From: Octopus vulgaris
Taxonomy: Eukaryota
Assembly (NCBI GenBank): GCA_951406725.2
Contig: OX597832.1
Coordinates: 60,202,001-60,266,000, forward strand
Length of the DNA stretch: 64,000 nucleotides
Reading direction: 5' to 3'
Shown here: positions 1,298 to 59,362 of the stretch, in pieces
Layout of the letters: the number at the start of each line of letters is the position of its first letter
Position numbering within the stretch: the first letter of the stretch is position 1
Program-made: the position numbers and the translations under genes
The notes under the pieces: model-generated
The model's database searches: none
Seen by the model: the letters and a program-made list of their open reading frames with translations, nothing else
What the model was told of the DNA's origin: nothing

Positions 1298-2823
1298 TGT
1301 TTCTTTATTAGCCACACAGGGCTGCACACAGATAGAACAAATTACAAGGTAGAGCTTTTCTTTTGGGGGTAAAAAAAAGGGGGGGGCGATCAAAAGGTAT
1401 CGTAAAAGGAAATTGATCAATAGGGATCGTTATCACAGAAATGTCAATATGAAGTGTAAAGGGGAGGACAGGTGAGGTTTACCCGTGGAAAGAAAAGCCT
1501 ACGGAAAAGACCACGGTAACCTCGGTCAATAAAGTCACATGTTATATTTCTTTTTTTTTTTTTTTTTTGCAAATAAGCAACTCTCTGTATTAATTTTTAC
1601 GGTTCATAGAATCATAGTCAAGGTGGCTTCGTCATTCATACGTGCCATTCTTGCTACATTCACCCATCTTTTTTTAAAACATTCACTAGACAAAACCTGC
1701 CTCTCTACTCTCACTTTCCTCTTCAAGTGATACTTGAAGAAGTTGATGAGAGATTGACCAGAGAGGAAAGTGTTTGTCTCTAATCCTTTCAGGCGCGTCC
1801 ACCAGATACATTCTTTCGCCATAGCCACAAGTATGATAAAAATAGCTCTTCCTTCCCGTTTGAAGGAAGGAGGCGTGACGATATTAACGATAGACTCGGC
1901 TGATAAACCGACACGTCCCACACGTGACAGCAGTCGTTCGAGACAAGCCCACAGGTCGGAGATTGTTGGACACTGCACGATTGCGTGCAGAACGGTTTCG
2001 TCGCTCTGCCCGCATCTCGGGCAGGTCGGCCCCGTGTTTCTCGAGCCATGCCTATAGAGCTTATCCCGAACGGGTAGCGCTTCTCGGTAGCACCGCCAGG
2101 CCAGGGATCTCTGGAAGTTGTCCATAGGTCCCGGCCCGAAAGTCGTCTCAGACAGGCGGGTCAGGTATTCCTCGTCGACGCCCAGGTTTGCCCCAAGTTC
2201 GTCGTCGTACCTCCCCTCCACTAATCCCCTATAGAATGCTTTGGTCGCGTTGAAGTCACTCAAGGTCGACCCAGGACGGCAGAGTTGCTTGAGAACAACG
2301 CGACACTCGCGGTGCCATTCGCCCTTCCTCGGCCTCTTTTTGATCCACGACTGCAGTTCGGTCAGGGAGACGAGCTGCGGGAACGCGTGCCTCACAAACG
2401 GCAACCACACCTGTTCACCGTCGTCTACATAGAGCCGGAGATGTCGCAGTCTTAGCGTGTGTCTGCGCATCATCAACCATAGCATACCCAGCCCTCCTTT
2501 TAACGGGTGTTGACAGCAAATGGATCGCCTGACCATCGGGACGCATCCTTTCCACAAGAAGCGGAAGAGAATGCGTTCTAGTTTGGTGATGGAAGGGTCA
2601 GGACAAGGTACGACGGTCAGGCGGTAGTAGATGATGGACGCGATGTACGTGTTCGCCACCTCCGCCCGACCTTTTAGGGACAGTTTCCTCTCGGCCCATT
2701 GCTGGGTGAGAGTGACCACCCTACTCGTTATCTCGTTCCAGTTCTTCTCCATTTGGAGGTCCGGACCTAACCAGACCCCGAGCAACTCAACCGGGCCGTC
2801 CGTCCAGCGTCCCACGACTGAGG

Positions 2824-5433: not shown

Positions 5434-6870
5434 GTGAAGCTGATGGTAGCGATAGCAATTGTGGTAGCAGTGGTGGTAGCAGTGGGGGGGGCGACGGCAG
5501 CAGTGGTGGTGACAGCAGCAGTGCTGGCGACGGCAGCAGTGGTGGCGACGTCAGCAGTGGTGGCGACGGCAGCAGTGGTGGCGACATCAGCAGTGGTGGC
5601 GACGGCAGCAGTGGTGGCGAAGTCAGCAGTGGTGGCGACGGCAGCAGTGGTGGCGACGGCAACAGTGGTGGCGGCGGCAGCAGTGGTTGCGATGGCAGCA
5701 GTGGTGGCGACGGTAGCAGTAATGGCGGCGGCAGCAGTGGTGGCGACGGCAGCAGTGGTGTCGACGGCAGCAGTGGTGGCGACGTCAGCAGTGGTGGCGA
5801 CGGCAGCAGTGGTGGCGACGTCAGCAGTGGTGGCGACGTCAGCAGTGGTGGCGACGGCAGCAGTGGTGGCGACGGCAGCAGTGGTGGCGAAGTCAGCAGT
5901 GGTGGCAACGGCAGCAGTGGTGACGACGGCAATAGTGGTGGCGGCGGCAGCAGTGGTGGCGACGGCAGCAGTGGTGGCGACGGCAGCAGTGGTGGCGACG
6001 TCAGCAGTGGTGTCGACGGCAGCAGTGGTGGTGACGTCAGCAGTGGTGTCGACGGCAGCAGTGGTGGCGACGTCAGCAGTGGTGGCGACATCAGCAGTGG
6101 TGGCGACGGCAGCAGTGGTGGCGACGGCAGCAGTGGTGGCGAAGTCAGCAGTGGTGGCAACGGCAGCAGTGGTGGCGACGGCAATAGTGGTGGCGGCGGC
6201 AGCAGTGGTGGCGACGGCAGCAGTGGTGGCGACGGCAGCAGTAATGGCGGCGGCAGCAGTGGTGGCGACGGCAGCAGTGGTGGCGACGGCAGCAGTGGTG
6301 GCGACGTCAGCAGTGGTGGCGACGGCAGCAGTGGTGGCGACGTCAGCAGTGGTGGCGACGGCAGGAGTGGTGGCGACAGCAGTAGTAGTGGCGACAGCAG
6401 CAGTGGTGGCGACAGCAGCAGTGGTGGCGACGGCAGCAGTGGTGGCGACGGCAGCAGTGGTGGCGACAGCAGTAGTAGTGGCGACAGCAGTAGTAGTGGC
6501 GAGAGCAGTAGTAGTGGCGAGAGCAGTAGTAGTGGCGACTGCAGCAGTGGTGGCGACGGCAGCAGTGGTGGCGACGGCAGCAGTGGTGGCGACGGCAGCA
6601 GTGGTGGCGACAGCAGTAGTAGTGGCGACAGCAGTAGTAGTGGCGAGAGCAGTAGTAGTGGCGAGAGCAGTAGTAGTGGCGACAGCAGCAGTGGTGGCGA
6701 CGGCAGCAGTGGTGGCGACGGCAGCAGTGGTGGCGACGGCAGCAGTGGTGGCGACGGCAGTAGTAGTGGCGACAGCAGTAGTAGTGGCGAGAGCAGTAGT
6801 AGTGGCGAGAGCAGTAGTAGTGGCGACAGCAGCAGTGGTGGCAACATCAGCAGTGGTGGCGACAGCAGTT
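5434..6870. repeat. GC-rich 18-bp minisatellite, unit GCAGCAGTGGTGGCGACG (~75 copies with variants)
   Basis: Direct reading; translates as VVATAA, PSPPLL or GSSGGD repeats depending on frame. Confidence 0.92.
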
Positions 6871-8741: not shown

Positions 8742-9070
8742 TCAGTGATTGTAGGATCTCTAAGAATGATAAAATAAAAGGTACTGAAACCTATCTGAAA
8801 ATGATACCAGGCTTACAATCCCTACAGGAAGTGCAAAAAATCGTGTTAACTGGAACGACTCATGTACTGAGAAGAGCATTATCGCAGTGAAAGCAACATC
8901 CATTCATGAATTTATTTATTTATTAATTTTTTAAATACATATTTTACCTGTGAATTTGCGTGTGTAAACTGGGAATTCATACAATGAGCTTCTCTGCCCT
9001 ACGGGTACGGAAAACACCCTGCGAGAAACGAAAGAAAATTTGAAGAAAGAAGAAAAAAACAATAAAAATA
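8742..9070 (+). mobile_element. 3' end of R4/Dong-like RLE non-LTR retrotransposon inserted in (TAA)n
   Basis: Encodes ...GTETYLKMIPGLQSLQEVQKIVLTGTTHVLRRALSQ*, homologous to 13380-13525; follows (AAT)n directly. Confidence 0.75.
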
Positions 9071-13000: not shown

Positions 13001-13029
13001 GGACAGTATTTATATTGAAAAATATGTAA

Positions 13030-13560
13030 GCACTACAAAATTAAGACATGACAGAGTTGGCCAATATCTACACTGGCTAATAAGTCGGCATTACAATATC
13101 AAAACTGCCGACAAGTGGTATAATCACCACCCTGAAGCTGTAACTGAAGGAGAAAATGTAACGATTCTGTGGGACTTTCCAGTACATACAGACCGAACCA
13201 TCAAAGCCAATAAACTGGATATTGTTGTGAAAGACAAAAACAATAAAGTGTGCTTATTGATCGACATGAGCATCCCCTGTGATCATAATATCTCGGCGAA
13301 AGAGTTTGACAAGCTCAGAAAATATAAAGACCTGCTCATTGAAATTGAGAAAATGTGGCATCTCAAGGCGGTTACAATATCAGTGATCGTAGGAGCACTA
13401 GGAATGATCAAGAAGGGAACCGAAAACTATATGAGAATGATCCCTGGCTTACCATCCCTGCAAGAAGTGTAAAAGATTGACTTAACTGGTCCATCACACG
13501 TATTGAGAAGAGCATTATCGATGTGAGAACTATTACTACCCATGTGTTTTAATTTAACTT
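13030..13560 (+). pseudogene. R4/Dong-like non-LTR retrotransposon C-terminal restriction-like endonuclease fragment
   Basis: RHDRVGQYLHW...ILWDFPVHTDRTIKANKLDIVVKD...LLIDMSIP...KLRKYKDL...VIVGALG; premature stop at 13470. Confidence 0.85.
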
Positions 13561-13860: not shown

Positions 13861-14321
13861 CTAATTCTTCATTGCCCACAAGGGGCTAAACATAGAGTGG
13901 ACAAACAAGGACAGACGAAGGTGCTAAGTCGATTACATCGACACCTGTGCGTAACTGGTACTTATTTAATCGACCTCGAAAGGATGAAAGGCGAAGTCGA
14001 CCTCGGCGGAATTTGAACTCAGAACATAACAGCAGATAAAATACCTATTTCGGAATTTTAACTCAGAACGTAGCGGCAGACGAAATTCCTATTTCTTTAT
14101 TACCCACAAGGGGCTAAACATAGAGGGAACAAACAAGAACAGACATAGGTATTAAGTCGATTACATCGACCACAGTGCGTAACTGGTACTTAATTTATCG
14201 ACCCCGAAAGGATGAAAGGCAAAGTCGACCTCGGCGGAATTTGAACTCACAACGTAACGGCAGACGAAATACGGCTATGCATTTCGCCCGGCGTGCTAAC
14301 GTTTCTGCCAGCTCGCCACCT
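13861..14321 (-). mobile_element. Tandem array of SINE family A units with Tx1-like 3' tail
   Basis: Head at 14321; tail-to-head junctions AAGAAATA|GG(T/A)ATTT at 14045/46 and 14089/90. Confidence 0.85.
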
Positions 14322-18572: not shown

Positions 18573-19681
18573 AGAGTGTATACAGAATCAGACTAGCACT
18601 CGTACACAACCGCATGTGAGTGAAGAAGGATTGTTTATAGCCATTAATCATTCCATACGTATCATGTTCATGTCACTTATGATATTACAACATTTCGATT
18701 ATCCTCTGTAGCACCACCATCACCACCACCAACGCCGTCAGCACTACCGTCACCACCAACACTACCAGTATCACCACTACCACCGTCGCCATCACAAGCA
18801 TCGTCGCCACCATCTTTGTGTGCAATTTATCCATTATTGACATTAAAAAAAAGTGATTATAGTTCGATCTAAGGGGATCTGAACTAAATGTTTCAAGTTA
18901 ACTGAAAGCTAAGAAGAAGAAAAAAGACAGCGCCGAAAAATAATTTTTAAAAAAAAATTCAATGCTTTTTATTTTCTGTTTACATGAATTAAATAGAGGA
19001 AGGTTGGAGCAGACGACACCTTTTCGGGACAAACAGCGATTAAGCGGTGGCACAAAGGAAGGAAGGAAGGAAGGAAGGAAGGAAGGAAGGAAGGAAGGAA
19101 GGAAGGAAGGAAGGAAGGAAGGAAGGAAAGAAAGAAGGAAGGGATAGGTGAACCAACGAACGGCCAAACAAACGAATGAAATAGGAAGGAAGAAACCAAC
19201 CAACCAACGTAGGCAGGTAGGAAAGAACGAACGAACCAAGGAAAGAAGGAGGGAACGACCAAACGAACGAACGAAAGTAGGAAAGGAGGGAAGGAAGGGA
19301 GGGAGGAACGAATGTATGAAGGAACGAAGAAACGAACAAAAGAAAGAACGAATGAATTTATTCTGAGATCGGGTCTCTGGCTTAAAGGGTTACAACAGAG
19401 TAGACATGCAGCCAAGGTGTGGGGTTCAACCGGTTGATGGTTTTACTGTTCTTAACCAAGAAATAAGGAACGTGCTTATGAATGGTAATCATTTCGTGCA
19501 GAAAGAACCGCCATTGGTCTCTGCACTTCAAGTTCTGAGTTTCATTCCCGACGAGGTCCATTGTGTCTTTTATTCTTCCGGAGTCGATAAAATGAAATAC
19601 CTGAAAAATGTGGAGGTCGTTTGTTTCGACCAACCACCTCCTCTGAAAATTACTCGATTTGTCATTAAATAAGAAACTCTT

Positions 19682-20080
19682 ATGGTGGCGAGCTGGCAGA
19701 ATCGATAGCACGCCGGGCGAAATGTTCAGCGGTATTTCGTCTGTCGTTACGTTGTGAGTTCAAATTCCGCCGAGGTCGACTTTGCCTTTCATCCTTTCGG
19801 GGTCGATTAAATAATTAGCATTTACGCACTGGGGTAGATGTAATCGACATAATTCGTTTGTCTGTCCTTGTTTGTCCCCTCTGTGTTTAGCCCCTTGTGG
19901 GTAATAAAGAAATAGGTATTTCGTCTGTCTTTATGTTCTGAGTTCAAATTCCATCGAGGTTGACTTTGCCTTTCATCCTTTTGGGGTCGATAAAGTAAGT
20001 ACCAGTCAAACACTGGAGTCGAGTGTAATTGACTTAATCTCTTCCTCCAAATTTGAGGCCTTGTGCTTCCAGTAGATAGG
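19682..20080 (+). mobile_element. Composite SINE family A: Tx1-tailed unit nested in an ordinary (TTA)n-tailed copy
   Basis: A box TGGCAGAATCGATAG, B box GAGTTCAAATTCC, Meta-like domain, tail ...AATAAAGAAATA|GGTATTTCGTCTG at 19914/15, second B box and Meta domain, then (TTA)n. Confidence 0.88.
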
Positions 20081-20101
20081 ATTATTATGATTATTATTAT
20101 G

Positions 20102-20173
<72 letters not shown>

Positions 20174-29267: not shown

Positions 29268-30210
29268 TCCTTTTTCTATTATAGGCACACAGCCTGAAAT
29301 TTGGAGAGGGGGGGGTCAGTCGATTACATCCCACCCACGACGCAATTGGTACTTAATTTATCGACCCCGAAAGGATGAAAGGCAAGCTCGACCTCGGTGG
29401 AATTTAAACTCAGAACATAAAGACATACAAAATACCTATTTCTTTACTGCCCACAAGAGGCTAAACATAGAGTGGACAAACAAGGACAGACAAACCGATT
29501 AAGTAGATTATATCGACCCCAGTGCGTAACTGGTACCTTATTTATCGACCCCGAAAGGATGAAAGGCAAAGTCAACCTCGGCGGAATTTGAACTCAGAAC
29601 GTAACGGCAGAAAAATACCGCTAAGCATTTCGCCCGACGTGCTAACGTTTCTTATTTCTTTATTGCCCACAAGGAGATAAACACAGAAGGGACAAACAAG
29701 GACAGAAAAACGGATTAAGTCGATTAAATCGACCCCAGTGCGTAACTGGTCCTTAATTTATCAACCCCGAAAGGATGAAAGGCAAAGTCGACCCCGGCGG
29801 AATTTGAACTCAGAACGTAGCCGCAGACGAAATACTGCTAAGCATTTCTACCAGCTCCCCGCCTTAACAACGGCAGTAATCTTTTCTGCTCAAGGCACAA
29901 GTCCCGAAATTTGTTGGGTGGAGGCCAGTCGATTAGATCGACCCCACTACGCAACTGGTACTTAATTTATCGACCAACGAAAGGATGAAAGGTAAAGTCG
30001 ACCTCGGCGGAATTTGAACTCAGAACATAAAGACAGACGAAATATCGCTCAGCATTTCGCACGGCGCACTAACGATTCTGCCAGCTCGACACCTTGACCG
30101 AATGTAATATTCTTTTTTATTCTTGGCACAAGGCCCGAAATGTGGAGGGTTGTTGGCCAGTCGATTAGATCGACCCTATTACGCAACGATTCTGCCAGCT
30201 CAACGCCTAA
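29268..30210 (-). mobile_element. Cluster/tandem array of about 5 SINE family A units, two with Tx1-like tails
   Basis: Repeated B boxes and Meta-like domains; junctions at 29436/37 and ~29652/53. Confidence 0.85.
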
Positions 30211-58336: not shown

Positions 58337-58607
58337 TTCCATTTATCTGTCTATCTACCCCCTCTTTACTTGTCTATATCTCTATCCATTTCGTGTCAAT
58401 GTGTCTATCAACTTTATTTATCTCAGTCAGTCTTTTTATCTACCCGTTTATATATGTCTGCCTACCTATCTATTCATCTATCTTCTATCTGTCAATCTGC
58501 CAGTCTATTTGCCTATATATCTATTTTCATCTCTATCCTGCTATTTATCTCTATCCATCCATCCATCCATCTACCTACCTACCTACCTACCTACCTATCT
58601 ATCTATC

Positions 58608-59027
58608 TGAATGACGAAGCCACCTTGAGCATGATCCTATGAACCCAGAAATTGAAAACAGAGAGTTGCTTATTTGCAAAAAAAAAAAAAAAGAAATATA
58701 ACATGTGACTCCATTGACCGAGGTTACCGTGGTCTTTTCCGTAGGCTTTTCTTTCCACGGGTAAACCTCACCTGTCCTCCCCTTTACACTTCATATTGAC
58801 ATTTCTGTGATAACGATCCCTATTGACCAATTTTTTTTTCTTTCCTCTCCCCCTTTTTTTAACCCCCCTTTTTTTAACCCCCTTTTTTTGTCCTCTTTCT
58901 CTCCTTTTACGATCCCTTTTGATCGAAACTCCCCTTCCTTTTTTTTTTTTTTAAACCTTCAAAAGAAAAGCTCTACCTTGTAATTTGTTCTATCTGTGTG
59001 CAGCCCTGAGTGGCTAATAAAGAAACA
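58608..59027 (+). mobile_element. Tx1-like element 3' end (copy 2) inserted in (TATC)n
   Basis: Encodes NDEATLSMIL*; 3'UTR nearly identical to 1298-1603 RC; ends AATAAAGAAACA|TATCTATC. Confidence 0.9.
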
Positions 59028-59120
<93 letters not shown>

Positions 59121-59237
59121 GTCTGTCTGTCTATCTGTAATATATCTATCTATCTAACTATCTACCTGTCTATCTATCTATCTATCTATTTATCCATCTA
59201 TCTATCCGTCTATCTACCTATCTATTTGTAATCTATC

Positions 59238-59362
59238 TTTTTTTTCCCACGATCCGTTTTGATCGAAATGCTACCCACCTCTTTTTTTCCTCCCAAAAAG
59301 AAACGCTCTGCTTTGTATTTTGTTCCCTCTGTGTTCAGCCCCGTGTGGCCAATAAAGAAACA
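59238..59362 (+). mobile_element. Tx1-like element 3'UTR fragment (copy 3, diverged) inserted in (TATC)n
   Basis: ...CTGTGTTCAGCCCCGTGTGGCCAATAAAGAAACA|TATCTATC. Confidence 0.85.

Follow-up and report, generated by a model that had tools for sequence, protein, structure and literature searches.

The composite SINE at 19681..20173 raises the question of how the tail of one SINE comes to abut the body of another at a fixed nucleotide within the SINE's own tRNA-like head. It lies on the forward strand of a 64,000-nt stretch of Octopus vulgaris DNA (contig OX597832.1, positions 60,202,001 to 60,266,000), which is referred to here as the window. A sequence-only reading of the window had proposed a self-targeting SINE that builds tandem arrays and had placed tail-to-body junctions at five positions, all of which we located where they had been claimed. 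The three composites in the window are made up as follows.

19681..19730, + strand: tRNA-like SINE head (5' half), with an allele typical of copies without tail A
19731..19849, + strand: unit 1, with the B-site GGTATTT, a B-box-like motif and the central domain
19850..19914, + strand: tail A, T variant (GGGTAATAAAGAAATA), homologous to the 3' ends of APE-RT-zf-RVT LINEs
19915..20030, + strand: unit 2, the 3' half of a tail-B-family SINE, restarting at GGTATTT, with the TCTTT diagnostic
20031..20173, + strand: tail B, then (ATT)n
13862..14320, - strand: second composite, with a head, a tail-A unit (ending at 14090), a 44-nt partial unit and a final tail-A unit
29270..29884, - strand: third composite, with a shortened head, tail A leading into the A-site (29652), tail A leading into the B-site (29436) and tail B

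The same tail end, AAAGAAATA, is followed by GGTATTTCG at 19914/15 (+), by GGAATTTCG at 14089/90 (-), by GGTATTTTG at 29436/37 (-) and, at the A-site, by AGAAACG at 29652/53 (-). The junction at 14045/46 is weaker, with six tail letters only (GAAATA) ahead of GGTATTTT, 44 nt past the preceding junction. In the first composite, the head at 19681..19730 is likely that of the target copy, given that its allele is typical of copies without tail A. It contains TGGCAGAATCG at about 19694-19704 (+), which we take to be A-box-like from the tRNA consensus, and unit 1 contains GTTCAAATT at about 19758-19766 (+), presumably a B-box-like motif. The opening 15 nt of unit 2 are the same as those of unit 1, a length of target-duplication size, and unit 2 has a single T4 run, at 19979. 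No flanking duplication was recognized around the 19681..20173 composite. Elsewhere in the window, at 5444-6869, a short GC-rich unit forms a 1.4-kb tandem array with long open frames in several phases.

The family to which these composites belong is short, noncoding, associated with target duplications and very abundant (at least 39,265 copies), as is typical of tRNA-derived SINEs. We built a 234-nt monomer consensus from 81 copies. Its longest T run is 3, with no T4 stop in the unit, and its 65-nt tail A resembles the 3' ends of APE-RT-zf-RVT LINEs in the same genome. ARAGORN found 0 tRNA genes in the head and Rfam gave no relevant match; the box-like motifs were assigned by eye. Two supplement files of PMC4824008 contain none of the three short motifs that we tested for the Meta central domain. 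One subfamily reads GCGTAGCCGTATTT at consensus positions 45 and 50 (e.g., 14273-14280, -) and is without the GGTATTT site; it makes up 15/60 monomers versus 6/60 seamless composite heads, as if it were a poorer target. At several loci (L133, L136, L149, L138/L139 and L030), 5' head pieces are doubled or tripled within one target duplication, which suggests template jumps as reverse transcription came to its end. The L108 locus shows the same insertion twice, inverted and with its flanks (G000:C1, about 3,467,150 and 3,472,620, about 5.5 kb apart), and this pair is a local inverted duplication. The family is also present in contigs of three other organisms, and pieces crossing the tail-to-body junction were listed in two of them; no piece in these contigs spans the window locus, and raw reads gave 7 matches. 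For one octopus species, SINEs are reported to make up 11.6% of the genome and L1-Tx1 families to have been recently active (PMC13282606).

We determined how often tail A runs into the SINE body by exact pattern counts over the 2.8-Gb genome (227 contigs). There were 39,265 exact tail ends and 0 matches to the reversed-pattern controls; in 6,753 exact matches the tail is continued by the SINE's own GGTATTT (B-site) and in 1,576 by AGAAA (A-site). An unbiased junction sample was drawn from the first 100 tail ends listed, 96 of which were used. When the next bases were mapped, they peaked sharply at two sense positions of the SINE only, as the sequence-only reading had anticipated: 29 at the B-site and 6 at the A-site, with 1 at antisense GGTAC and 60 outside this SINE. 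With arrays collapsed, the same sample gave 20, 6, 1 and 60 of 87. About one third of insertions in the sample of 96 therefore fall at two exact spots in the heads of relatives. Insertion is not SINE-specific, however, given that 60/96 tail ends are found elsewhere, at motifs of a similar kind; nearly all copies would be expected at one target in strict site-specific homing. The proposal of a self-targeting SINE that builds arrays stands as far as insertion into family members is concerned but fails as a claim of a dedicated site. Tail-A copies at L004, L009, L020, L024 and L124 sit in other abundant repeats, and L020 and L124 share the same GGTTTGACCAG insertion site.

The tail-A SINE inserts de novo into existing family members, given that double-headed loci resume the target with a duplication. 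The pattern expected of such an event, namely a target head, a spacer and a full new head, gave 64 exact matches versus 9 at a control site. Among 30 of these loci that we read, 25 (24/29 independent) resume the old copy at GGTATTT after tail A, with a duplication; the remaining 5 comprise 3 with a non-SINE 3' flank and 2 without tail A. Double-headed loci typically duplicate 10-19 nt, and in at least 10 of them letters private to the target lie on both sides of the new copy. The targets carry tails A, B and C and older types, some being much diverged (L135, L147 and L227), and L135 holds two units within one target duplication.

The flanks of tail-A copies indicate why relatives' heads are hit. 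Across 56 loci with both flanks, the target duplication has a median of 16.5 nt, the commonest bases after the cut are G32 G37 T43 A42 T35 T30 T25, and 40/56 pairs have a pyrimidine at -1. The insertion motif in these pairs is relaxed, RRY/GGTATTT-like (the slash marks the cut) with AGAA and TATA as alternatives. The RRY bias upstream does not come from RNA pairing, given that the tail has ATA there. From 52 non-SINE targets (4 of the 56 pairs were dropped: 2 SINE-like, 1 duplicate and 1 with a misplaced end) we derived a motif matrix and ranked all positions of the SINE on both strands. The B-site came out on top (weight 506, next 145), and therefore the endonuclease's preferred site is present in the SINE's own head. 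Insertion into the heads of relatives follows because the B-site is the best match to the motif preferred everywhere.

The motif does not account for all of the self-insertion. Given that the matrix treats positions as independent and underpredicts the B-site (1.2%), we used a 7-mer comparison. GGTATTT follows the tail end at 8,752 junctions, 6,753 of which go on as SINE, versus 32/101 background GGTATTT sites in 434 kb of sequence, taken from the end of one chromosome and from the window. The self-insertion excess over the motif has an odds ratio of 7.3 against this regional background, and it falls to about 5-fold once arrays are collapsed, using the ratio in the sample (29 to 20).

A single tail letter is coupled to the site used. 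T or C thirteen bases before the tail end separates the insertion sites: by eye, among the matches listed, T is present in 91/100 rows at the B-site and C in 91/100 rows at the A-site, compared to a baseline of 55 T and 41 C in the sample of 96 tail ends. The coupling extends outside SINEs, where a GGT start follows 28/50 T tails versus 7/32 C tails (p 0.003) and an AGA start follows 2/50 T tails versus 9/32 C tails (p 0.003). Duplication length is the same for both variants (p 0.48), their upstream bases are similar, and each shows 3-4% divergence. This coupling fits, and likely comes from, pairing of a read-through RNA with its target. A direct sign of such pairing, overwriting of the 3' duplicate toward the motif, is weak (9 versus 2, p 0.065). 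At non-SINE targets such pairing would be short, given that they match the SINE over at most 7 nt. In R2Ol, longer 3' target homology is reported to have lifted insertion from 12% to 96% (PMC6530143), and RNA-target pairing past the tail is described as also mattering in L1 priming (PMC3649969).

The tail also points to the kind of enzyme involved. The last 26 nt or so of tail A match LINE loci L175/L193, and about 26 nt upstream of these match L186; among 30 of 150 zf-RVT loci, we found no single LINE with the whole of tail A. The 1132-aa ORF of L226 scores above cut-off for PF03372, PF00078 and PF13966 (APE, RT and C-terminal zf-RVT), as expected of an L1/Tx1-type LINE. Tail A falls within a radiation of LINEs that encode these three domains. 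The LINE homologue searches returned no Tx1-named match. The zf-RVT LINE families with related 3' ends include L166-L195; among the matches listed, several of these, on G000:C2 near 73.05 Mb, are spaced by about 5.4 kb, which suggests a head-to-tail array. The window itself holds related LINE sequence.

1298..2822, - strand: LINE (zf-RVT), 5'-truncated, in a (TATC)n array; its 3' end resembles tail A at about 81% over 42 nt
58607..59362, + strand: two further 3' fragments of LINEs in (TATC)n, whose ends resemble tail A

The LINE family at 1298..2822 is young and abundant, with 31,810 candidates and many open frames of about 1,149 aa among 150 scored. It ends in (TATC)n at 30/30 loci (L061-L090) and is thus microsatellite-targeting, as expected for the target preference of the Tx1 clade. 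We considered it as the partner of the SINE; it is related but probably not the partner, given its (TATC)n targets and tail likeness of about 80%. The fragment at 13002-13526, whose 156-aa frame has no Pfam match, resembles a 3' portion of a different non-LTR element. The sequence-only reading had suggested looking for an autonomous LINE at the SINE's B-site, and none was found in the one family tested or among the 100 listed of 1,973 tails lacking the SINE's upstream GGGG; these 100 look like SINE indel variants or truncations. The LINE family nearest by tail end showed no GGTAT preference, nor one for repeats or microsatellites. The sole match of an L166-type LINE end at GGTATTT is a truncated SINE piece and not a LINE insertion.

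We consider it probable that a high-copy tRNA-type SINE, with a likely L1/Tx1-type partner and a duplication of about 16 nt at a relaxed RRY/GGTATTT-like motif whose best match falls between the family's own promoter box-like motifs, re-inserts at that match several-fold above what the motif predicts, likely by RNA pairing. We propose Pol III read-through given that the SINE has no T4 stop; Pol III would read past the tail into the 3' flank. Where the source copy itself sits in a SINE, the extended end of its RNA would then pair with the target once this is nicked, and such pairing would amount to a feedback that also fixes the site used by a lineage. Most composites would lack a second head because the newly made cDNA pairs with homologous target sequence upstream, with cDNA-target switch points lying anywhere in the head. 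Long uniform arrays would extend further by local duplication, and some composites may retrotranspose as units. A stronger version, to which we give somewhat less than even weight, is that target choice is inherited through RNA: terminator-less transcripts would carry the 3' flank as a guide, so that lineages keep their site and re-tail the promoter half of the host copy.

The origin of the seamless majority is one that we infer, given that 1/55 unselected composites is double-headed; the composite sets leave out loci without a head or flank. That single count would also fit a reading in which self-insertion is real but rare and most seamless composites are the progeny of a few transcribed, pre-formed dimers, and because the unit has no T4 stop, its promoter could transcribe through the target's 3' half. 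We regard this as improbable. The halves of seamless composites do not co-cluster and no pre-formed dimer families were seen; a Mantel test gave no covariation between left and right units (r 0.095, p 0.16, n 48), and the right units of 17 mixed composites differ pairwise by at least 8.7% (median 16%), so the fear that the composites spread as one dimer with diagnostics common to both halves did not materialize. Right units are also farther from the tail-A consensus (0.074 versus 0.039 for left units), a gap inflated by other-family right units scored likewise. The head points to the target family: an allele typical of non-A copies (11/14 of them, tails B and C being pooled as non-A) is found in 12/17 mixed-tail composites versus 16/60 monomers and 7/31 A-A composites (p about 0.002). 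The TCTTT prefix, found in 8/60 left units versus 1/60 monomers (p 0.03), likewise speaks for a target-derived 5' part. Divergence of the head shows no correlation with the right unit (rho 0.11, p 0.40; in mixed composites, Mantel p 0.22). With the left unit the correlation is weak (r 0.33, p about 0.05-0.064), a covariation that fits some pre-formed progeny, as do the two units within one duplication at L135. Rare alleles common to mixed pairs (6, versus a null mean of 2.9 and maximum of 10) are not clearly above the null. The array layout ending in an ordinary tail, which had been read from the window, holds in part: the final unit is often tail A (31 A, 17 other and 12 unclassified among 60 seamless composites).

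Slippage or unequal exchange at the DNA level, involving the GGTAT of the head and the one that follows the tail, is very unlikely as the origin of the composites. SINE-derived satellites are known (PMC10702118), and A-A pairs have 16 rare alleles in common versus 0.8 under the null. Neighbors in the 7-unit array L046 differ by 1, 1, 1, 0, 0 and then 12, and those in L101 by 11, 1, 3 and 11. Given the A-A sharing and the near-identical neighbors in L046, local duplication lengthens some arrays. However, 37/48 A-A pairs share no rare allele, and exchange can yield neither double-headed loci with duplications, which exclude it as the sole cause, nor mixed-tail composites; it explains the growth of arrays and not their origin. 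Different partner LINEs or endonucleases for T and C, with the excess arising from chromatin or co-location, easier 5' joining and amplification and no RNA guidance, are a more serious contender, although we still think this unlikely. Many LINE families have related tails and different targets, the (TATC)n family being one and others showing no clear motif, and site differences among SINEU elements have been ascribed, as a proposal, to different Tx1-Mar families (PMC4494074). Against it, the T and C variants agree in duplication length, RRY bias and age, and their only differences lie on the downstream side of the cut, in the stretch with which RNA would pair. Least likely of all is strict homing by a site-specific system dedicated to the parent SINE: the two sharp sites and the 7-fold excess speak for it, but the insertions outside this SINE refute it in its strict form, and the LINE family tested has no autonomous copy at the site. 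We therefore describe a real, large phenomenon of motif-driven self-insertion with extra enrichment, and not strict homing.

The closest known system is that of SINEU with Tx1-Mar. Crocodilian SINEU-1/2/3 are likewise LINE-mobilized with partial preference (13-90%) for another repeat, and they have two hot spots used differently by subfamilies and tandem copies around the target duplication (PMC4494074). The SINEU target is an unrelated Mariner element (PMC4494074), whereas the octopus SINE targets its own promoter region and its products are headless tandem units. Zepp is similarly a non-LTR element nested in its own copies, but it is an autonomous LINE with one cluster per chromosome (PMC3446292), whereas the octopus SINE is nonautonomous and dispersed over thousands of loci. 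R2Ol, R1Bm and R2Bm are strictly rDNA-specific and autonomous, whereas the octopus target is a passenger SINE family and the endonuclease preference is relaxed. Studies of R1Bm and R2Bm, cited in PMC3649969 and PMC6895275, reportedly describe read-through and homology-assisted integration. As proposed here, target-homologous RNA flanks in these systems reportedly improve 3' priming and can complete the 5' junction (PMC6530143 for R2Ol). Squamate SINE-derived satellites resemble the octopus arrays as tandem arrays of part of a SINE; they are credited mainly to recombination (PMC10702118), whereas the octopus arrays start from retrotransposition at a constant nucleotide. The octopus OR1/OR2 CORE-SINEs and the MetaSINEs share with the present SINE a tRNA head, a central domain and exchangeable tails; in the accessible text of these sources, OR1/OR2 are called CORE-SINEs and no MetaSINE is placed in octopus (PMC4824008, PMC4758252). 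In the open literature, repeat databases being outside the scope of the search, we came across no SINE described as inserting into its own head or promoter region.

In summary, two results go beyond the sequence-only reading: self-insertion exceeds the motif about 7-fold, and the T/C tail variant predicts the site. How SINE families exchange tails, and hence partner LINEs, has been posed as an open question (PMC4824008), and here, in thousands of events, the head of a target family has been joined to a new tail at a constant nucleotide, providing a tail-swap mechanism that can be counted. Annotation would split such composites into many SINE families or label them as dimers. Should the T/C coupling be carried by RNA, then insertion specificity in a natural genome is set in part by a passenger RNA and not by the enzyme. 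If target choice is inherited through RNA, it would constitute an RNA-templated, self-reinforcing homing loop in a SINE, with the T lineage at GGTATTT and the C lineage at AGAAA, and would be a route of tail exchange between SINE families.
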